From assembly GCF_037902255.1 (NCBI RefSeq), contig NZ_CP147990.1, forward strand, positions 1,470,001 to 1,502,000: 32,000 nt of DNA. The letters run 5' to 3'. Position numbers and translations under genes: made by a program. Under the pieces are notes generated by a model that worked only from the letters and a program-made list of their open reading frames with translations, was not told the DNA's origin and made no database searches. Positions 2,750 through 15,936 of the stretch are shown piece after piece. The DNA comes from Candidatus Electrothrix sp. GW3-4 (GTDB lineage Bacteria > Desulfobacterota > Desulfobulbia > Desulfobulbales > Desulfobulbaceae). Every line of letters begins with the position of its first letter. The stretch's first letter is position 1.

Positions 2750-4435
2750 TCACGGTAGAGCCACCACCGGAAAGTCGGGCACGTTCCTGGGGATGACCAC
2801 TGCCGGGGTCTGTTTGCTATTGGTCATGGTCTTGACCCGTTCAGCGATATAGAGCTTGATCTCGGAAACTTTAACAGCCCTGTCCTTTATATAATCCGCA
2901 TTGCCGCGCAACGCCTCAAGCAGGGCCAGGGTAAAGGCCCCGTGCCCCCATTCGGGCTTTTCCAGAGCCGTCTGCTGGCCTGTTGTGGCAGACAGCACGA
3001 TCACCCCATTCTCTGCCGCGCTCAGGTCGTTGATGATCCTGGTGATGTCCACCTTGTCGTTGCCGCGCCGCCCGGCGGCCCGCCCGGAATAGCAGGTATC
3101 AACAAAGAACAGGGCCTTGCCCTGGATACGGGATACCGTGCTGTTGATGGCATCGTAGGACACGCCGCTGCTCATGTACCGCCCCGGCTCAAAGTCCCTG
3201 GGCAGGAAGTAGTAATCCCCGCGCCGGTCCAGCTTACCGTGCCCGGCAAAGAAGACCATTGCCACGTCCTTGTTCGTGGTTTCCCGCTCGATCCAGTCCA
3301 GCCCGTCCAGGACAGCACTCCGGTCCGCCTGTTCATTGATCAGCACCTTCTCCTTTACCTCCCGGTAGAGCCTGTGCCTGCCCGGCCCGACATGCTTCCG
3401 CATCTCCTGAACAAAGTCCCGCGCATCAGCACCCGCATAGTTGAGATACTTTCTGTCCGTCCTCTTGCCTTGGTCATCCACCGCAAAGTTGATTGCTGGC
3501 GCGTCATAGGTGTCCACACCCACGGCCAGCACGTACAGTACCGGTTTAAAGGGATCTATGTTGCCTTGCCAGTGCAGATTAATGTCAGCAGGTGGCGACG
3601 TGTCACCCAGCGCATTCTCGGCCAGCAGGCTGAGGGTCATGTCCTTGGCAGGCAGGGTCACGTCCAGACTGCCTTCCCATTCCGTATCCCTGCGCCGCTC
3701 CACTGTGGCCCGCTGCCGATACCTTCCATCCACCTGAACCAGCAGGTGTGTGATGGGTGGGCCGTCCTGGGTGCGCACCCGGTAACGCAGGGTCAGGGTG
3801 GGACTGCTGAAGCTGCTCCCGTTTGCCGGAGCGAGCAGGTCAACAGCAGGGGGCAGGGACAGCACCACCGGGCCGGACCGCTTCCTTCCTGCCGCCGCAT
3901 CAGCACGGGCCACGGCCTTGTCTTGGTCCAGGGTCTCCAGCACCTTGGCGACCACGTCTGGGCGGTAAAAGCGTTCGCGGAACTGAGAAGCTGGGAAGAA
4001 GTCGGCCAGTCGGTCTTTGCCGTTGTTGACCTGCCAACCGATCAGGCTGTCCCCGCCAGGGCTGCTGTCGTACCAACCCTTCGGAGTCCAGGCCACCCAA
4101 TGCTCTGCCTCCTTGGTCTTCTGGTTGACAGAGACAAACAGGGCAAGCAGCGGCTCACCGTCGCTGAGGCGGTACCAGCGCACCGTGCCGTCTGCAAAGG
4201 CGGCCACTGCCAGCTTCCCATCCTTGCTGATATTCACGCCCCAGGCAGTGCCCGGCACCGGCTGCTGCCAGACTTCCCGGCCCTGGCGGTCAAAGTAGCG
4301 CAGCCTGTAGTCCGCACCCAGAAGGAAGTGCTGCTTGTCCGGGGCAATGGCCAAGCTGCGGGAACGTTCGTACTGTTCCAAGGCCAGCGGTTTGCCGTTG
4401 AGGGTGGGATTATATTCTGTTGATCCAGTCCGCAA
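2750..4435 (-). CDS. caspase-like peptidase C14 domain protein with N-terminal WD40 blades (C-terminal fragment of split gene)
   Basis: Catalytic His sits in VAMVFFAGHGKLD (codon 3239-3241). Catalytic Cys sits in ALFFVDTCYSGRAAG (codon 3092-3094). The N-terminal part has propeller-like strands (GKLAVAAFADGTVRWYRL). The track start is TTG 4435, directly after an in-frame TGA at 4439-4441. Confidence 0.85.
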   Translation of the reverse strand: MRTGSTEYNPTLNGKPLALEQYERSRSLAIAPDKQHFLLGADYRLRYFDRQGREVWQQPVPGTAWGVNISKDGKLAVAAFADGTVRWYRLSDGEPLLALFVSVNQKTKEAEHWVAWTPKGWYDSSPGGDSLIGWQVNNGKDRLADFFPASQFRERFYRPDVVAKVLETLDQDKAVARADAAAGRKRSGPVVLSLPPAVDLLAPANGSSFSSPTLTLRYRVRTQDGPPITHLLVQVDGRYRQRATVERRRDTEWEGSLDVTLPAKDMTLSLLAENALGDTSPPADINLHWQGNIDPFKPVLYVLAVGVDTYDAPAINFAVDDQGKRTDRKYLNYAGADARDFVQEMRKHVGPGRHRLYREVKEKVLINEQADRSAVLDGLDWIERETTNKDVAMVFFAGHGKLDRRGDYYFLPRDFEPGRYMSSGVSYDAINSTVSRIQGKALFFVDTCYSGRAAGRRGNDKVDITRIINDLSAAENGVIVLSATTGQQTALEKPEWGHGAFTLALLEALRGNADYIKDRAVKVSEIKLYIAERVKTMTNSKQTPAVVIPRNVPDFPVVALP

Positions 4436-4708: not shown

Positions 4709-5728
4709 TTAGCAGGGGGCGAAATCCATCACGGATGTATCTGCCGCCTGCCAGCTTATCCGCTGGCCTCGCCCCTTGTTCGCCCAGCGCAGGACAGGAT
4801 TATTGCCGCTGCCGTCATCATACAGTCCCCCGGCAAAGAGGAAGCTGCCGTCCGCAGACCAAGTGACAATGGAAATATTGCCGTTATCGATGCCCTCTGT
4901 GTCTACGGCATAGAGCTGAGTGAGCTGCCGGGCATCCAGCACCGAGACTGCGGTGCTATCCTGAAAGCCGACTGCTAATCGGTCACCTGCGGGATGAAAG
5001 GCGACCGCAAAGGGTTCCTTGCCGCCTTGGGTGGCTGCCTGCTGCTCCTTGCGAAAGGAGGCTGTGTTCATCCGACCCTCCACGCTATAGCGGCGGATCT
5101 GGCCGTCATCGCAGGTAGTAACCAGACTGCGGCTGTCCGGGCTGAAGGCGCAACCGTAGCTATCCTTGCCGTCGTAGTTGCGGTCGCTGAGTACCTGCCT
5201 GAAGCCCTGCTTCACAGCATAGACCCGCAGCCCCTTGCCACCTCCCAGCACCGCTGCCAGCCATTGCCCATCCCGGGACACGCAGAGATGGTTGATGACA
5301 TTGCCCAGCCCCTCAATGCGTTGGCGCATCTGGCCTGTGGCCCGGTCAAGAATGTAGATAGCTGTCGTGCTTCCGCCCCAGACATCCGTCCACCCGCCGG
5401 TTGCCAGCCACTCGCCTGCCGGGTCCATAGCCACAGCATTGAGCTTGCCTTCATTACCCGGCCCGCTGGGCAGGCGAAAGGTGCGGAGCAGGTTGGGCTT
5501 CTCGGTATCCCGGATATCCTTGCCAAGATCCCACAAGCGCAGGGTCTTGTCCTCCGAAGCTGTAGCGAGCCAACGACCTTGCGCATCCGTGGCAATCCGC
5601 CTGATCGTGGCAGTGTGGAAACCGGTTTCCAGGCGTAGCATGGGCGCAGTGGGTGGTTCAGCGGCTTGGGTTGTAGCGGCAAGCAGGATAAGGAGGACGA
5701 TGAGTAGGTTGAAGAGCAGGTGTTTCAT
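4709..5728 (-). CDS. secreted WD40 repeat protein (N-terminal fragment of split gene)
   Basis: Signal peptide MKHLLFNLLIVLLILLAATTQA/AEP. Repeated blades include ATASEDKTLRLWDL, LATGGWTD, VSRDGQWLAAV, FSPDSRSLVTTCDDGQIRRY and WSADGSFLFAGG. Confidence 0.8.
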   Translation of the reverse strand: MKHLLFNLLIVLLILLAATTQAAEPPTAPMLRLETGFHTATIRRIATDAQGRWLATASEDKTLRLWDLGKDIRDTEKPNLLRTFRLPSGPGNEGKLNAVAMDPAGEWLATGGWTDVWGGSTTAIYILDRATGQMRQRIEGLGNVINHLCVSRDGQWLAAVLGGGKGLRVYAVKQGFRQVLSDRNYDGKDSYGCAFSPDSRSLVTTCDDGQIRRYSVEGRMNTASFRKEQQAATQGGKEPFAVAFHPAGDRLAVGFQDSTAVSVLDARQLTQLYAVDTEGIDNGNISIVTWSADGSFLFAGGLYDDGSGNNPVLRWANKGRGQRISWQAADTSVMDFAPC

Positions 5729-10718: not shown

Positions 10719-11456
10719 CTCTGTGGGGTTGCAATGAGCTTGCAGTCCTGCACTGAGGATATTGTGTAAGACAAGCCCTCGGTCTGTTTGCGGGTAAAGC
10801 CCGCGTTAATTATTGAGCCGCTCAATATGGCAAAGCAGCAGGGCGTATCGCCTGCCTATCTCTCGATATTATCATTTTAGTTCCTGTCCAGCAAGAGAGC
10901 GTTGCTCTCTCCATCCCCTATTACCCTTTCGGTACCCATCTTTATCTTCCGCGACATTCCCTGTAGATAACACCCATCCCGCCCCCTGGGGCAGAACAGC
11001 AAAGCATGAAAGGTGATCGGACGTCCCCAGGGAATCGTCGGTACTTTCATATAAAGGTATCTGGCTGCGTACTACTACATTATCCATTTCGGGCCGGGGT
11101 TATGCTCCTGATGGCATTGGGGCAATAGTGTTTGTTTTGTGTTTTCGTGCATTGAAGTTAACAGCGTCGTGCCGCAAAAGATATTTGCCAGGATTGAGGT
11201 TGGTTCTGTCGGTTATAGTGAATCAAGTATTTTATATAGTGAAACAGGTAGATATGGGGTGTTCTGTTTGGGTAATAGAAGCAGTGCGACTCCATCTCTA
11301 TGGGGTTTACAAAACCTTTACAATTTAATTTGCGTTGGACAAACTTCCTTTACAAACTTTGGTTAAGATATACGTATAAACAGAGAGAAACATTCAATGA
11401 CGCACAGTCTTCACTGGCTATAGCAGCTCTATTTTGAGACTTTTTAATATTTTTGA

Positions 11457-11702
11457 GTGGTTATTGTGGGTATTTTAAAAAATAATTTTAGCAATTCAAA
11501 AGAAGATAAACGTCAATTAATAGAGATTATTTTGCTTGTATTAATAATATTAACTGTAATATTAACTTTGTATTCTTCTTTTGATCGGCATGCTGGTGGC
11601 ATACAGATAAAAGATCCAAAGCTTACAAAAGAAAAAATTTATAAACAAGGAGTTGGAAAGAGTACGGTAGCTCGTGAGGTCGTTGAGCTCGATGTTGAGT
11701 AA
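11457..11702 (+). CDS. hypothetical small single-TM protein
   Basis: Track ORF with a GTG start in a very AT-rich stretch. One hydrophobic helix (LIEIILLVLIILTVILTLY). No recognisable family and a weak start context. Confidence 0.3.
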   Translation: MVIVGILKNNFSNSKEDKRQLIEIILLVLIILTVILTLYSSFDRHAGGIQIKDPKLTKEKIYKQGVGKSTVAREVVELDVE

Positions 11703-11791
11703 CATATGAAGAAAAAACCTTTGCCGAACAAAAGCGATTCCCTTATGGCAATCATGGAGATTGTCCTAACTAATAAAGAGGATAGAGAGTT

Positions 11792-12265
11792 ATGTTGGTT
11801 AATAAAACATCATATTCTGAGCTTCTTGATCACCCTAAATGGCATAAGAAAAAATTAGATATTTTAGAAAAATCTGGCTTTAAATGCATTAGTTGTAGCT
11901 CCAATGAAAAGACACTTGATGTGTATCATTCCTATTATGTAAGCAATTTGAAACCATGGGAATATCCTAATAATAGTCTGTATTGCCTCTGTGGTGAATG
12001 TTATAATAAATCGCAATATATTATTACGTTAATTAAAAGACAGTTAAGGCATATTGAATTGGCCTATAATGAACGGCTTTTTGGCTATCTCTATGGATTA
12101 GAGACCTTAACGTACCCAATGGTGACTATTGGCGTTATGTCATATGAGGTCGCTCAAGGCATCGGAGACTGCTGGAAAATACCTCCTGAAGTAATCATTG
12201 AAAATCTTCGTGATGGTCATATTGATGGCTACACTTTGCGTAGTCTATCGAAAAACACAGAGTAA
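11792..12265 (+). CDS. HNH-like zinc-finger domain protein with Tyr in place of the expected His residues
   Basis: The N-terminus HPKWHKKKLDILEKSGFKCISC...LDVYHSYY...KPWEYPNNSLYCLCGECYNK follows the phage-type HNH layout I remember: W..KR..IL.RD...C..C...L.VHH.YY...PWEY...L..LC..CH...H. Several of the His positions are Tyr here. RBS AAAGAGGA is present. The C-terminal ~80 aa are unassigned. Confidence 0.6.
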   Translation: MLVNKTSYSELLDHPKWHKKKLDILEKSGFKCISCSSNEKTLDVYHSYYVSNLKPWEYPNNSLYCLCGECYNKSQYIITLIKRQLRHIELAYNERLFGYLYGLETLTYPMVTIGVMSYEVAQGIGDCWKIPPEVIIENLRDGHIDGYTLRSLSKNTE

Positions 12266-12759
12266 TGTGGTCGCTCAGGATTGATCCGGCCATCCCCCTT
12301 TTTTTAAAGCGGATCGTTTGCTTTTTCCCTGCCTCAAGCTCCTTTGCTAATACCTTCCGAATATCTTTTTTTCATCCGCTTATCCCCCATTTCGCTATTG
12401 CTATAAATAGCTGAATTTTAAATTTAAATTTTCAGCTCATTCTCTTGTGTAAAAAATAACAATACCGTAAAATCAATTATTTATTGTTAAGCATGGGGCA
12501 AAATAAGCGAATGGGGGGCTTATTATCGCAGATTGTACGATTATGCGTCGTTATACACTTTCCGGGGATAATATTGCCTGTAGTGCTGCTTACTCCTGAG
12601 AAATTCATGATTAATTCGTAATTTTTTTTCTGTGCTCCTCCCTGAGTTGCGGTTCTCTCTGTTTTGCACTAGGATAAGCACTTAGAATTTTTTCATGATA
12701 AAAGGAGGATTCTTCAGGGAGAAAGAGTCGGGCAGGGATTTTTTACAAGGAGGCTGAAT

Positions 12760-13128
12760 ATGGATATCATTACAGCGGCAATTGCCGGGGCATTGGCGAA
12801 TTTAGGAGCAGCGGCTGTCCAGAAAGGGTATGGAAAGCTGAAGGCGGTTATGCAGCGTAAGTTTGGGGCGGATAGCGACGTGGTGCAGGCCACAGAGAAG
12901 TTGGAGCAAAAGCCAGAGGCGCAGGGGCGGAAGTTGATGTTGCAGGAGGAATTGGTGGCTGCTGCTGCGGATAAGGATGCTGAACTGATAAAAGCGGCTG
13001 AGGAACTGCTGGCTGAGGTAAAGAAGCAGCCCGGAGGAGAAGCCTTTGTGCAACAGGTTGTTAACCAGCAGATAACCGGAGACGGTAATATCTTTTCCGG
13101 TACAGGTAATGTGACGGTTACGAAATAA
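12760..13128 (+). CDS. small helical protein with C-terminal NLR-matching motif (Bell/HeLo-like effector candidate)
   Basis: RBS AAGGAGG lies 7 nt upstream. The N-terminus has a Gly/Ala hydrophobic helix, MDIITAAIAGALANLGAAAV. The middle is charged and helical. The C-terminal QQITGDGNIFSGTGNVTVTK matches the N-terminus of the next gene. The stop overlaps the next ATG (TAATG at 13126-13130). Confidence 0.7.
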   Translation: MDIITAAIAGALANLGAAAVQKGYGKLKAVMQRKFGADSDVVQATEKLEQKPEAQGRKLMLQEELVAAAADKDAELIKAAEELLAEVKKQPGGEAFVQQVVNQQITGDGNIFSGTGNVTVTK

Positions 13129-15062
13129 TGGCTGCTGAAAATCGCCAGGACGTTGACGGCAGCGATAATATATTTTCCGGCAGCGGGCCGGTGACCGTCA
13201 ATAAGGTCACCAAGAATTATTACTCCTCTGAGGAGCCTTCCTCAACAACGAATGCTCCTTCCGAATTAGCCACCCTCTTCGGCGTTCCTAACCTCCCGCC
13301 GCGCTATCTGGAGCGGAATGACTACCTTGATCCCTTCCGCGAGGCCCTGCTTTGCGGGAAAACGCAGGCGGTCGGGATAACCGGCAGGCCGCAGTATGTA
13401 GGTATGCAGGGTATGGGCGGACTGGGCAAGTCGGTGTTGGCAGCGGCCTTGGCTTGGGATGAAGAAGTACGCCGTGCCTTTCCAGACGGCATCTTCTGGT
13501 TGCGTTTTGGGCAGGAGGTGGATGAGGCCGGGGTGCAGGAGCTGCAAAAGGAAATCTTACTGGTTCTGGCCCCGGACAGCAAGCCGGAGTCTCCGGCTCA
13601 GGGGCGGAACCTCCTCAGCCTTGCCCTTCAGGGAAAACGCTGTCTGCTCATAGCCGACGACCTCTGGGACAGCAGATACATCAACCATTTTGACCTTACC
13701 GACTCCGGTTCTCGTTTTCTCCTCACTACCCGCAATAACGAGGTCATCCAGGAAACAGGTGCCCACCGCTGCGAGCTGGAACTGCTCTCGAACGGGCAGG
13801 CACGGGAGCTGCTGGCGAAATGCTCCGGCTTTGCTGAGGAGGATCTGCCTGAAGAGGCGGAAGCCATCCTGCGGGAATGCGGTCGTCTCCCCTTGGCTGT
13901 GGCAGCCATCGGCAGTATGGTCAATGGCAAGGGGCGTAGTCGCTGGCAGTTGGCCCTGGAGAAACTGCAAAATGCCCGGCTTGATAAAATCCCGGCCAGG
14001 TTTGATCGCTACAGCGGCTATGAAAATCTGTTCAAGGTCTTTCAGGTCAGTGTGGAGGACCTGCCGTCCGAGGTACAGGCCTATTTCAAGACGTTGATTG
14101 TCTTTTCTGAAGATGCGGAAATCCCTGAATCCGTGCTTCAGCTCTACTGGGAGCATATTGGTCAGGGGGAGTATGAGCCGCTGGAGGCGGTTGACCTGCT
14201 GGTGCAGCGGTCATTGCTTACTCCTGGAGCCAATCATAACGCGTTTGTCCTTCATGATTTGCTTCGGGATTACCTTGTTATTGAGGCTGACGGTGAGGTT
14301 GCCGAGTTGCACAGGCAGCTGCTTATGGCCTATAAAGCTGTTTATCCAGACGGGTGGCATACGATCCCTTATGCGACACCTTATTATTTCTATAGATACT
14401 GGTCAAATCATGTAGAAGCAGCTGGTGAGAGGGCTTTAGCTTCGAGTATTGCAGATGCGCTGATTCAGCATCAGCCTCTTCTCAATCTAGATAGTGTGCT
14501 GGAGGCTTTAATTTTTGTTAATTATGAATTTGAGGACATTGCTCACTCTCTCTTGAAAAGAAATCAGAATTCAAGGGTCCTCTATAGAAGTCTGCAAATT
14601 CTCGGGTCCAAAGCTAAGGAGGATGCAAGGCGACTCTTAAAGGAGAATTCCGACTCGTCTGTGATCAGTGAATGTCTCAGAATCCTTGATGGTGAAGCAA
14701 AGAAAAATGCTCGACAACTGTTGAAAGAAAGTTCTAATCCAGAAATTATTGATGAATGTTTCAAGATTCTTGGAGATGAGGCTAAAGAGGATGCAAAACG
14801 ATTATTGAAGGAGAGTTCTGATTCCTGGATGATCCTTATCTGTTTAGGCCTTCTTAAGGATGAGGCAACTGAGGAAGCCCGGCAGTTACTCAAATCAAGC
14901 GAAGATGAATATATTGTTGTTGCTTGTATTGAAACACTCGGCAAAGAAGCAAAAGCTGAGGCCAATCGGTTGATTAAAATTAGCAAAAGTAAATTTATCC
15001 AAGGATGCTGTCGGAAATTAATTTCTTCCTGGAATGATCTACCAAAGAGTAATACTTTATAG
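13128..15062 (+). CDS. NB-ARC-type STAND NTPase (bacterial NLR-like) with C-terminal 28-aa helical repeats
   Basis: P-loop GMQGMGGLGKS (13410-13433). Walker B CLLIADDLWD. FLLTTRN resembles RNBS-B and CGRLPLAV resembles the GLPL motif. A helical/winged-helix region follows. Then come five to six 84-bp-phased repeats starting at 14577, 14661, 14745, 14829, 14913 and 14997. Confidence 0.9.
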   Translation: MAAENRQDVDGSDNIFSGSGPVTVNKVTKNYYSSEEPSSTTNAPSELATLFGVPNLPPRYLERNDYLDPFREALLCGKTQAVGITGRPQYVGMQGMGGLGKSVLAAALAWDEEVRRAFPDGIFWLRFGQEVDEAGVQELQKEILLVLAPDSKPESPAQGRNLLSLALQGKRCLLIADDLWDSRYINHFDLTDSGSRFLLTTRNNEVIQETGAHRCELELLSNGQARELLAKCSGFAEEDLPEEAEAILRECGRLPLAVAAIGSMVNGKGRSRWQLALEKLQNARLDKIPARFDRYSGYENLFKVFQVSVEDLPSEVQAYFKTLIVFSEDAEIPESVLQLYWEHIGQGEYEPLEAVDLLVQRSLLTPGANHNAFVLHDLLRDYLVIEADGEVAELHRQLLMAYKAVYPDGWHTIPYATPYYFYRYWSNHVEAAGERALASSIADALIQHQPLLNLDSVLEALIFVNYEFEDIAHSLLKRNQNSRVLYRSLQILGSKAKEDARRLLKENSDSSVISECLRILDGEAKKNARQLLKESSNPEIIDECFKILGDEAKEDAKRLLKESSDSWMILICLGLLKDEATEEARQLLKSSEDEYIVVACIETLGKEAKAEANRLIKISKSKFIQGCCRKLISSWNDLPKSNTL

Positions 15063-15336: not shown

Positions 15337-15936
15337 ATGCCATTGCCTCAGCACGAACCGCAACAGCAGATCAGCGAGCAGGAATACCTGGACGGTGAAC
15401 TCCTCAGTGAGGTGAAGCACGAATTCATTGATGGATCTGTCTACGCAATGGCAGGGGCCAGTGCTGATCATGGCAGAATAGCAGGCAATCTTTTTGCTGC
15501 CTTCCTCCGCCATCTTCAGGAGCGGAAGTCACCATGTGAGCCTTTCCAGGCTGATATGAAGGTGAAAACCGGGAAGAAGTTTTTTTATCCTGATGTACTT
15601 ATCTCCTGTGAGCAGGAAGAAAATGAGTATTACCGCAATGCCCCTTTGCTTATTATCGAGGTGGTCTCGCAGTCAACCCGGAAAAAAGACAACACCATAA
15701 AACGACAGTCCTACCAGGCTCTTCCCAGCCTGGAAGAATTCGTTTTGATTGAGCAGGATTTTGTCGATATTGAGGTCTGTCGGAGGAGCAAGCACTGGTG
15801 GCCTGAGCATTATTATCTCGGCGATGCAGTGCATTTTGCCTCAATTGATCTGACCCTGCCAGTGGAGGATATCTACGCCCGAGTCATGAATGATGATATG
15901 CAGGCGCACAGGAAAAACACAGCAAATTATGAGTAA
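15337..15936 (+). CDS. Uma2 family (DUF820) restriction-endonuclease-fold protein
   Basis: EYLDGE...VKHEFIDGSVYAMAGASADHGRIAGNL...PDVLISC...PLLIIEVVSQSTRKKDNTIKRQSY is the typical Uma2 pattern, with the PD-(D/E)xK-like D...EVxS core. RBS AAGGAG is present. Confidence 0.85.
   Translation: MPLPQHEPQQQISEQEYLDGELLSEVKHEFIDGSVYAMAGASADHGRIAGNLFAAFLRHLQERKSPCEPFQADMKVKTGKKFFYPDVLISCEQEENEYYRNAPLLIIEVVSQSTRKKDNTIKRQSYQALPSLEEFVLIEQDFVDIEVCRRSKHWWPEHYYLGDAVHFASIDLTLPVEDIYARVMNDDMQAHRKNTANYE

Follow-up and report, generated by a model that had tools for sequence, protein, structure and literature searches.

Gene pairs in which a small Bell-domain protein is encoded beside a NOD-like receptor (NLR), both partners carrying a short motif of a BASS family, were described in filamentous bacteria by Dyrka et al. 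(bioRxiv 10.1101/2020.01.06.895854; J Mol Biol 432:6005). Fibrils and prions were reported for BASS1 and BASS3 (bioRxiv 10.1101/2020.01.06.895854), and all of the BASS families tested so far (1, 3, and 11) formed both. The Bab/Agp system of Escherichia coli, which represents BASS11, employs amyloid signalling that leads to abortive infection (Ibarlosa et al. 2024, bioRxiv 10.1101/2024.11.07.622273), and a published association holds that Bell/BASS systems track multicellular lifestyles. In this work, a computational analysis was applied to a gene pair of the same general layout, located in a stretch of 32,000 nucleotides from the genome of Candidatus Electrothrix sp. GW3-4 (contig NZ_CP147990.1, positions 1,470,001 to 1,502,000 of the forward strand), which is referred to below as the window and to which all coordinates refer. 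Ca. Electrothrix is a cable bacterium, a filamentous and multicellular member of the Desulfobulbaceae.

The pair encodes a Bell-domain protein of 122 amino acids (aa) followed by an NLR of 644 aa, and the C-terminus of the former and the N-terminus of the latter share a motif of ~20 residues. We assign a probability of roughly 0.7 to the reading that these genes constitute a two-gene, co-translated Bell/BASS-NLR amyloid-signalling death switch, which by analogy would be a bacterial counterpart of the fungal HET-S/NWD2 system. This reading builds on the layout of the pair, the family memberships of its products, the match between the two motif copies, the linkage of related genes in other genomes, the co-variation of motif classes, and the substitution of the motif for effector domains. 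It is also the interpretation given to the gene pair by an original prediction, made from the sequence of the window alone, and the present analysis supports it. The architecture (published in 2020) and its association with multicellularity are already known, and no new principle is involved; new here are the host lineage of cable bacteria, a sensor composed of 28-residue helical repeats, and a modular motif family with many members that the BASS1-10 sequence files do not contain.

Layout of the gene pair and the shared motif

Both genes lie on the forward (+) strand. The gene for the Bell-domain effector (12760..13128), annotated as hypothetical protein WGN25_06790 and recognized by its open reading frame (ORF), a match to the Pfam family PF20701, and its identity to published Bell proteins, ends with a TAA codon (13126-13128) that overlaps by 1 nt the ATG codon (13128-13130) of the NB-ARC NLR gene (13128..15062), producing a TAATG junction. 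The second gene is annotated as 'NB-ARC domain-containing protein' and was recognized by its ORF, a 100% protein match, and an Apaf-1-like structural model. A Shine-Dalgarno-like AAGGAGG (12747..12753, +), read directly from the DNA, stands 6 nt 5' of the Bell ATG, and promoter and terminator scans around the gene pair gave signals at background level only. Among the pairs collected by Dyrka et al., 42% have overlapping genes (bioRxiv 10.1101/2020.01.06.895854). The ORF coordinates, the C-terminus of the 122-aa ORF (...VNQQITGDGNIFSGTGNVTVTK), the N-terminus of the 644-aa ORF (MAAENRQDVDGSDNIFSGSGPVTVNK), that of the small protein (MDIITAAIAGALANLG), and the TAATG overlap were all re-read as originally predicted. 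The suspected deltaproteobacterial background was also correct: each of the two proteins has a 100% identical counterpart in Ca. Electrothrix sp. GW3-4 (Desulfobulbaceae).

The effector-side copy of the putative signalling motif, QQITGDGNIFSGTGNVTVTK (aa 103-122 of the Bell protein; 13066..13125, +), is kept in most homologs and is referred to below as class A. It matches the sensor-side copy, QDVDGSDNIFSGSGPVTVNK (aa 7-26 of the NLR; 13146..13205, +), which falls in a region modelled with a predicted local distance difference test score (pLDDT) of ~25. The two copies are identical at 12/20 residues, as had been counted originally, and the Smith-Waterman score of the Bell tail against the NLR head is 61, compared with 19.8±4.3 (maximum 42) for shuffled sequences, of which 0/5000 reached 61. 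No other copies were detected in the six frames of the window. Recent duplication of DNA was rejected as the origin of the two copies, which share 37/60 nucleotides and use the same codon in only 5/12 of the identical-residue pairs.

The pattern of the motif in the window is Q-x-V-x-G-x-x-N-I-F-S-G-[TS]-G-[ND]-V-x-V. In a set of 40 class-A motifs, F10 and G14 never vary, and each of Q1, V3, G5, and N8 is kept in at least 92%. This set is enriched in N (2.9x), T (2.5x), G (2.3x), V (2.1x), and Q (1.8x), and depleted in L (0.01x), P (0.13x), and K (0.39x), with strong depletion of E as well. Enrichment in Q, N, G, V, and I with depletion of K, P, and L was described for BASS and fungal amyloid signalling motifs (Dyrka et al.), and the composition of class A shows this bias.

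The Bell effector and the NB-ARC receptor

Sequence comparison identifies the 122-aa protein as a Bell-domain homolog, as had been proposed. A BLASTP comparison with two published Bell-side sequences from supplementary file 26 of PMC8086366 (Dyrka/Saupe groups) gave 57% identity over 74 aa (E 5e-22) with PLS85526.1, a fragment, and 39% over 95 aa (E 6e-15) with CCI22909.1. The Pfam model PF20701 ('HetE-N') matched aa 1-84 with 24.6 bits (E 3.1e-5), just missing the cut-off of 25, and precomputed annotation places PF20701.5 on the 122-aa protein and on 29/29 homologs. An exhaustive profile search recovered 2634 cluster representatives at E<=1e-3, and the best 149 of these representatives have a median length of 132 aa; the Bell-like family of the 122-aa protein is large and established.

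The AlphaFold2 (AF2) model of the small protein, built from a multiple sequence alignment of 30 sequences, shows the helical bundle that was expected, followed by a low-confidence tail. Six helices are predicted over aa 3-107 (mean pLDDT 80, predicted template modelling score 0.71), and the putative helical-bundle Bell domain spans aa 1-~100 (12760..13059, +). The mean pLDDT of ten-residue blocks is 85-93 for aa 1-90 and 73 for aa 91-100, and values below 50 are found at residues 105-107 and 109-122. The N-terminus forms a hydrophobic, Gly/Ala-rich helix, MDIITAAIAGALANLGAAAV (12760..12819, +), delineated by the family alignment and by the AF2 helix at residues 3-13. An acidic residue occupies position 2 of this N-terminus (MDIITAAIAGALANLG), in the counterpart of the 'MEPIS' region of Bab (described in bioRxiv 10.1101/2024.11.07.622273) and of Bell proteins; relatives start with MDPIT, MEPVI, or MDPIS, and an MDP start is present in 87/149 family representatives. 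An acidic residue combined with a hydrophobic N-terminal helix is the described signature of Bell, HeLo, and MLKL N-termini. A sequence search of the PDB with the Bell profile returned no significant match (best E 0.18).

On the evidence of profile matches and a structural model, the 644-aa protein is an Apaf-1-like NB-ARC NLR that has no effector domain of its own. The NB-ARC module (aa 87-311; 13386..14060, +) matches PF00931 with E 1.8e-31 (109.7 bits, cut-off 23.5). All four motifs quoted in the original prediction were located in it: Walker A GMGGLGKS (aa 95-102; 13410-13433), Walker B LLIADDLWD (aa 173-181; 13644-13670), LLTTRN (aa 198-203; 13719-13736), and GRLPLAV (aa 252-258; 13881-13901), all on the + strand and containing invariant columns in protein alignment A3. 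The predicted winged-helix domain of Apaf-1 type (aa 315-383; 14070..14276, +) is supported by a match to PF21296 below its cut-off (E 3.5e-4) and by the structural alignment with Apaf-1, and contains an LHD (MHD-like) motif (aa 375-377; 14250-14258, +), the H376 and D377 residues of which are invariant in alignment A3. An NCBIfam scan returned only weak, far-sub-threshold matches of TPR-system models, to the NB-ARC region.

The AF2 model of the NLR (mean pLDDT 82) begins with 44 residues at ~25, so that a low-confidence, motif-bearing N-terminus (aa 1-44) stands in place of an N-terminal effector domain, as anticipated. It continues with a core of nucleotide-binding, first helical, winged-helix, and second helical domains (NBD-HD1-WHD-HD2). 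Foldseek matched the model to Apaf-1 (3sfz, E 6.5e-19 over ~500 columns), and further matches include CED-4, Dark, and the plant receptors NRC2, ZAR1, and Sr35 (1e-11 to 1e-9). The C-terminal region, a putative sensor, consists of six 28-residue helical repeats (aa 473-640; 14544..15047, +), recognized by the register of the repeats and by the AF2 model, in which six helices of ~25 residues recur with a 28-residue period over aa 482-636 (block-mean pLDDT 92-97). The repeat consensus, xRxLLKxSSDxxxIxxCLxILGxEAKxxA, is neither TPR nor WD40, in agreement with the initial reading of helical repeats, and matches HEAT_2 only weakly. Orthologous NLRs of 551-953 aa contain from 0 to 11 repeats by a crude pattern count. 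The guanine plus cytosine (GC) content over the repeat-coding DNA (14500..15000) is 0.39, compared with 0.55-0.59 in the NB-ARC part of the gene, and no tandem repeat was found at the DNA level under the protein repeats. The GC content and the variation in repeat number suggest that the sensor module was exchanged or evolves separately.

Linkage and co-variation in related loci

The comparison covered 22 fetched loci (L001-L022), each with a gene related to that of the small protein or to that of the NLR. Where the downstream gene is readable, it encodes a STAND (signal transduction ATPases with numerous domains) NTPase opening with the tail motif of the effector, with a single clear exception (L006). 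The expectation that homologs of the small protein neighbour same-motif STAND NTPases therefore held in almost every readable fetched locus, and 20/26 metagenomic effectors described below precede a motif-headed gene. In the exceptional locus (L006, 3274-3798), a Bell protein with a class-B tail (SGDHSKVIAVVGGQHVSINA) is followed, in place of an NTPase, by a small gene starting with MPVISMFYGIIIRMY, DUF4160-like by eye, and the Bell protein is an orphan effector in this locus.

By motif, the 20 effector/sensor pairs form seven classes, and a change of the effector tail is always accompanied by a change of the sensor head. Class A comprises 11 pairs (the window, L001, L002, L003, L005, and L016-L021) from Electrothrix, Electronema, and other Desulfobulbaceae, and the NTPases bearing its motif in these pairs belong to three lineages: NB-ARC, a P-loop/TPR type, and NACHT. 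Class E, which is BASS3/RHIM-like, is represented by four loci (L009, L010, L011, and L013) from cyanobacteria and a Burkholderiales metagenome-assembled genome, with the tail KYNVxFxGxVKGxQVGDxN matched by the head; the motif carried by these loci is BASS3 (pairwise score 86). The remaining classes are C (L007, Anaerolineae; tail NVGVMGTNLGTVNM, head TVGVLGVNRGTVNI), D (L008, E. aarhusensis; tail GSGAIAQNGSTAAGAGGVALGGNV, head GSGAIAQDGSIAAGAGGVAVGGNV), F (L012; tail NFQGFYGENLGTV, head NFRGFYGENLGIV), and two with weaker tail/head matches, B (L004, score 39) and G (L014 and L015, scores 26-27). In a permutation test with one representative per class, the true pairing alone among 5040 reached the observed summed score, and with all 20 pairs the observed score was reached by 0/100000 permutations. 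The co-variation of tail and head motifs that the original prediction had named as decisive was thus found across the seven classes (1/5040 permutations). Within class A, tails and heads are interchangeable in sequence, and any tail fits any head.

Two loci contain two tandem Bell genes before one NTPase (L014, 3529-8097; L017, 3628-7138). Both represent the same chromosomal site, with a UvrD-like helicase upstream and an SNase downstream. In L017, both Bell tails and the sensor head are of class A; in L014, from E. aarhusensis, the first Bell protein is of class A, and the second Bell protein and the sensor are of class G. Judging from these motifs, cassette swapping at L014 has left a Bell protein without a cognate neighbour.

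Modularity of the motif

Close homologs of the NLR (45-80% identity, mostly from cable bacteria) have a variable N-terminus, which carries a class-A motif, a class-D motif, other short motifs, a coiled coil, TIR, or CHAT. A fused TIR domain is present in at least 14 of these homologs, and fused CHAT domains are likewise found at the position of the motif. The short motif takes the place of an in-cis effector and would link the NLR to an effector encoded in trans; this substitution is a pattern described for fungal and bacterial NLRs.

An independent sample was obtained from metagenomes using a degenerate DNA pattern for N-I-F-S-G-[ST]-G-[ND]-V, so that loci were retrieved through the effector-side motif alone. 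The pattern matched 75 contigs from soil, peat, and sediment, and the full extended motif Q-x-V-x-G-x-x-NIFSG[ST]G[ND]V is present in ~45 of these matches. The 28 distinct effectors are mostly Bell-like proteins of ~120 aa, accompanied by TIR_2(-Bell) proteins of 293-315 aa and CHAT proteins of ~300 aa. The motif-headed sensors include NB-ARC, AAA_16, and P-loop+TPR proteins, TPR-only proteins that lack an NTPase, and NACHT proteins with a C-terminus that looks multi-pass transmembrane. A motif-headed gene follows 20/26 of the effectors with enough downstream sequence, 11 by the strict pattern and 9 more with an NIFT[AG]xGD variant.

These recurrences bear on the possibility that the two motifs resemble each other by chance or as a consequence of the overlapping genes, the genes being neighbours unrelated in function. 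Each motif is a short low-complexity sequence (G/N/T/V-rich), and adjacency makes a local duplication conceivable. Against this stand the score that none of the 5000 shuffles reached, the different codon usage of the two copies, the recurrence of the pairing in the 11 class-A loci with three NTPase lineages and in most metagenomic effectors, and the switching of the NLR head class with the tail class; the comparative data have already refuted this explanation, and we give it practically no credence.

Several metagenomic proteins depart from the common arrangement. In one locus (L028), a Bell ORF ending at 1566 carries tandem motifs, class A followed by GNYIAQASSGSTASVNV, and the next gene is TIR-like and has no motif; the GNYIAQASSGSTASVNV-type motif is a common Bell-like tail that matches the 'class not assigned' protein PLS85526.1. 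In four loci (L040, L054, L093, and L097), the class-A motif lies near the N-terminus of coiled-coil and TPR proteins without an NTPase, with a TPR_12 match of E 2e-55 in L040; these proteins recall Agp, the non-NLR sensor of Bab/Agp. Two class-A-headed NACHT NTPases, L057 (829-aa open frame, 811 aa from the first Met) and L059 (752-aa open frame), have at their C-termini a long hydrophobic region, multi-pass transmembrane by eye, in place of the soluble repeats, and proteins of this type would be membrane-embedded sensors. CHAT proteins of ~290-311 aa (L062 and L077) combine a class-A tail with a BASS-like N-terminal stretch (GGVNISGSTVHVKGDVVG); bearing motifs at both termini, they might act as relays or adaptors.

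The motif and the published BASS families

None of the strings IFSG, FSGTG, and FSGSG turns up in the BASS1-10 or 'class not assigned' sequence files of PMC8086366, and NIFS occurs in these files once, in an actinobacterial NLR-side test file. The motif string was not found in the searched literature, in which nothing relevant was found on cable bacteria with NLR, amyloid, or STAND.

Class A was compared by hhalign with 10 BASS profiles derived from a sample of the families (BASS1 split in two, BASS10 not included). The best partner was BASS1, with a probability of 15.8% (E 0.0016) over 25 columns in register. The score of 15.9 compares with 6.3±1.6 for column-shuffled controls, of which 0/100 reached it, and the alignment places G-x-x-N-I-F-S-G-T-G-N-V-T-V on G-x-x-R-V-Y-Q-A-G-R-D-x-H-I. 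For BASS2-9 the probability did not exceed 2.8%, and pairwise scores of class A against the sample of BASS1-10 remained at the null level. The NLR head of L022 (MKQKVKGDRNIVAGRDVNITK) scored 50 against a BASS1 sequence (MKARASGKARITMAGRDVNITE), a value reached in 0/500 shuffles; the NLR head of the window alone was not significant against BASS1 (46/500 shuffles reached its score). Class A shares with the Streptomyces BASS1 motif (..ASGxxRVYQAGRDxHITER) the same length and the register [ST]-G-x-x-x-[VI]-[YF]-x-[AG]-x-x-[DN]-x-x-[IV]-T, whereas the signature residues differ, NIFSGTG in class A and RVYQAGRD in BASS1. BASS1 was reported as specific to Actinobacteria, with ordered fibrils demonstrated. 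Two further candidates were rejected: graded tail variants as a bridge to BASS1 gave no gain (broadened profile 13.5%, intermediates alone 3.8%), and a likeness to BASS2 (N-x-I-S-G-G...GPV) received an hhalign probability of 0.3%. Since the BASS1 match is weak and was not improved by the graded variants, we call the motif BASS1-like and do not file it as BASS1.

Two refinements to the original prediction follow. The motif had not been recognised among the published families; it is absent from the BASS1-10 files, yet weakly related to BASS1, the closest of them, over 22-25 columns. The motif is also special neither to this genome nor to cable bacteria, being common in metagenomes of soil and sediment, where several types of effector and sensor carry it.

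The comparison with the published motifs also bears on a rival explanation, in which the shared motif serves as a non-amyloid docking peptide, acting through homotypic beta-strand pairing or recruitment into the NLR oligomer, and the Bell protein is activated by induced proximity instead of prion-like templating. The pairing, co-variation, and modularity need only mutual recognition of the motifs, and the monomer AF2 models give the motif no structure, an outcome that an amyloid-forming motif would also allow but that is not diagnostic of one. On the other hand, its ~20-aa length, its N/G/V/Q-rich and Leu/Pro-free composition, and its Gly, Asn, and alternating-hydrophobic pattern match those of the published BASS motifs, and the families tested so far (1, 3, and 11) all form fibrils and prions, the nearest one, BASS1, having ordered fibrils. 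We consider a docking peptide quite unlikely.

Genomic context

Upstream of the pair are genes for a DUF190 protein, a Nitro_FeMo-Co protein (dinitrogenase FeMo-cofactor-binding family), and two ParA/ferredoxin ATPases. Directly upstream, an AT-rich stretch (11000..12500) has a GC content of 0.33-0.39 compared with ~0.55 in the flanks and contains small orphan ORFs only, one of them a Cys-rich ORF of 157 aa (11792..12265) with no Pfam match; this stretch may be what is left of DNA gained by horizontal transfer. Downstream of the NLR are a putative restriction endonuclease of the Uma2 family (15337..15936) and an amino-acid ABC transporter. The synteny with Uma2 and the transporter is common to the window, L003, and L022, the last of which is orthologous to the window (Bell, NB-ARC, Uma2, ABC transporter), and Uma2 is also found downstream in L016 and L019. 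The NLR length and the motif subtype differ among the Uma2-syntenic loci, and by this comparison the Bell/NLR locus resembles a polymorphic cassette whose insertion site is conserved.

Two adjoining genes on the same strand, ~8 kb from the pair, make up another candidate module for cell death or conflict. The product of one (2750..4435, -; 560 aa) has a caspase domain (Peptidase_C14, E 5e-14) at its C-terminus, and that of the other (4709..5728, -; 338 aa) is a WD40 beta-propeller protein (E 5e-25).

Proposed mechanism and biological role

By analogy to BASS1, BASS3, BASS11, and HET-s, the pair would operate as follows. The 28-residue repeats at the C-terminus of the NLR would bind the trigger, which is most probably a protein from a phage or another foreign source. 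The Apaf-1-like module would then exchange its nucleotide and oligomerise, bringing several N-terminal motifs (aa 7-26) together, and the clustered motifs would adopt a cross-beta (beta-arch) fold that templates the Bell motif (aa 103-122). The folded Bell tail would release the helical bundle, whose N-terminal hydrophobic helix would insert into the membrane and kill the cell, one cell of the filament being sacrificed. Amyloid formation, templating, attack on the membrane, and the nature of the trigger are all drawn from these analogous systems, as are the presumed toxicity of the Bell protein and the possible role in abortive infection.

Several results weigh against the interpretation as an amyloid-signalling death switch. 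A Foldseek search of the Bell model against the PDB gave no significant match (best E 5.7), lending no support from structure to kinship with Bab, HeLo, or MLKL, and for this reason the link between Bell and pore-forming domains is taken from the literature. Pair-specific co-variation within class A (GNIFSG) was not significant (p ~0.13), so that specificity between paralogous pairs is unproven. The matches of classes G (26-27) and B (39) are weak and individually unconvincing, and the profile comparisons do not support clear membership in any tested BASS family (best BASS1, 14-16%). No family of PADLOC-DB 2.0 matched either protein at E<=1, no Bell relative was found on viral contigs, and the surroundings of the pair are not recognisable as a defence island; the anti-phage role is a guess. 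Two matches to the motif pattern on viral contigs proved to be chance ORFs of 14 aa.

The same absences enter into an alternative that retains the amyloid death switch and assigns it to kin or non-self recognition or to the controlled death of filament cells (fragmentation, removal of damaged cells). The multicellular cable-bacterial host fits the association of Bell/BASS systems with multicellularity, the pair is flanked by housekeeping genes rather than by a defence island or prophage, the fungal prototypes act in allorecognition, and strains differ in this locus although its site is conserved. Conversely, Bab/Agp, the only such bacterial system with a tested function, is anti-phage, the paralogous NLRs bear TIR and CHAT domains, effectors of a kind that anti-phage systems typically use, and the variable sensor repeats together with the AT-rich flank fit an arms-race locus. 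We regard this alternative as rather unlikely.

A further suggestion, to which we give a rather low probability, is that the GNIFSG class A is an undescribed, widespread BASS family used as a shared signalling currency rather than a private line. It builds on the interchangeable tails and heads and on the loci with two Bell genes per sensor or with effectors lacking a cognate neighbour, from which it follows that several sensors (NB-ARC, NACHT-transmembrane, TPR-only) could draw on one shared set of Bell, TIR, and CHAT executioners in a single cell or filament. If true, such a currency in cable bacteria would amount to an inflammasome-like amyloid hub controlling cell sacrifice in an electrically coupled filament.

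The death-switch reading extends signalling by an NLR plus an amyloid motif to the cable bacteria, a third independently evolved lineage of multicellular bacteria, and their inclusion therefore strengthens the reported link to multicellularity. It provides a candidate device for programmed cell death or phage defence in organisms that so far cannot be cultivated axenically. The motif family, with its natural variants, its Bell, TIR, and CHAT effectors, and its several sensors, could serve to test the determinants of specificity and cross-talk.

Comparison with known systems

The closest counterparts are the Bell/BASS-NLR pairs of Dyrka et al. (2020). These share with the window pair a Bell protein of ~120 aa that begins with a hydrophobic helix and ends in a motif of ~20-25 aa, a collinear and overlapping downstream NB-ARC gene with the motif at the N-terminus of its product, the compositional bias of the motif, a multicellular host, and direct sequence homology of the Bell domains. 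The sensor of the window consists of 28-residue helical repeats, whereas theirs are TPR or WD40, and the host belongs to the Desulfobulbaceae, a family missing among the hosts of paired motifs in the main text of that paper, which are mainly Actinobacteria and Cyanobacteria.

The BASS11 system Bab/Agp of E. coli likewise combines a small Bell-related effector, with a MEPIS-like N-terminus and, in Bab, a C-terminal amyloid motif, with an adjacent motif-headed sensor, and its proposed logic, from sensor activation through amyloid templating to membrane damage, is also shared. The BASS11 sensor TGP has a TPR-GreA/B-C-PIN organization, whereas the NLR of the window contains neither GreA/B-C nor PIN. 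Bab/Agp is located in prophage defence hotspots (bioRxiv 10.1101/2024.11.07.622273), unlike the window locus.

The fungal systems HET-S/NWD2 (HRAM) and HELLP/PNT1 (PP/RHIM-like) resemble the pair in the adjacency of the genes, in the homology of the NLR head to the effector tail, and in a helical effector with an N-terminal hydrophobic helix, which in fungi is membrane-targeting. They differ in their HeLo/Hell effector, NACHT-WD40 sensors, tested function in allorecognition, and kingdom, and the HET-s motif is doubled (two pseudorepeats), whereas that of the window effector is single. Apaf-1 and the CNL/TNL resistosome NLRs of plants have in common with the window NLR the NBD-HD1-WHD-HD2 organization and the Walker A/B, GLPL, and MHD-like motifs. 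The window NLR lacks their fused CARD, CC, or TIR domain, its sensor repeats are unrelated to the WD40 or LRR repeats of these receptors, and its 20-residue motif would signal instead to a separate effector.

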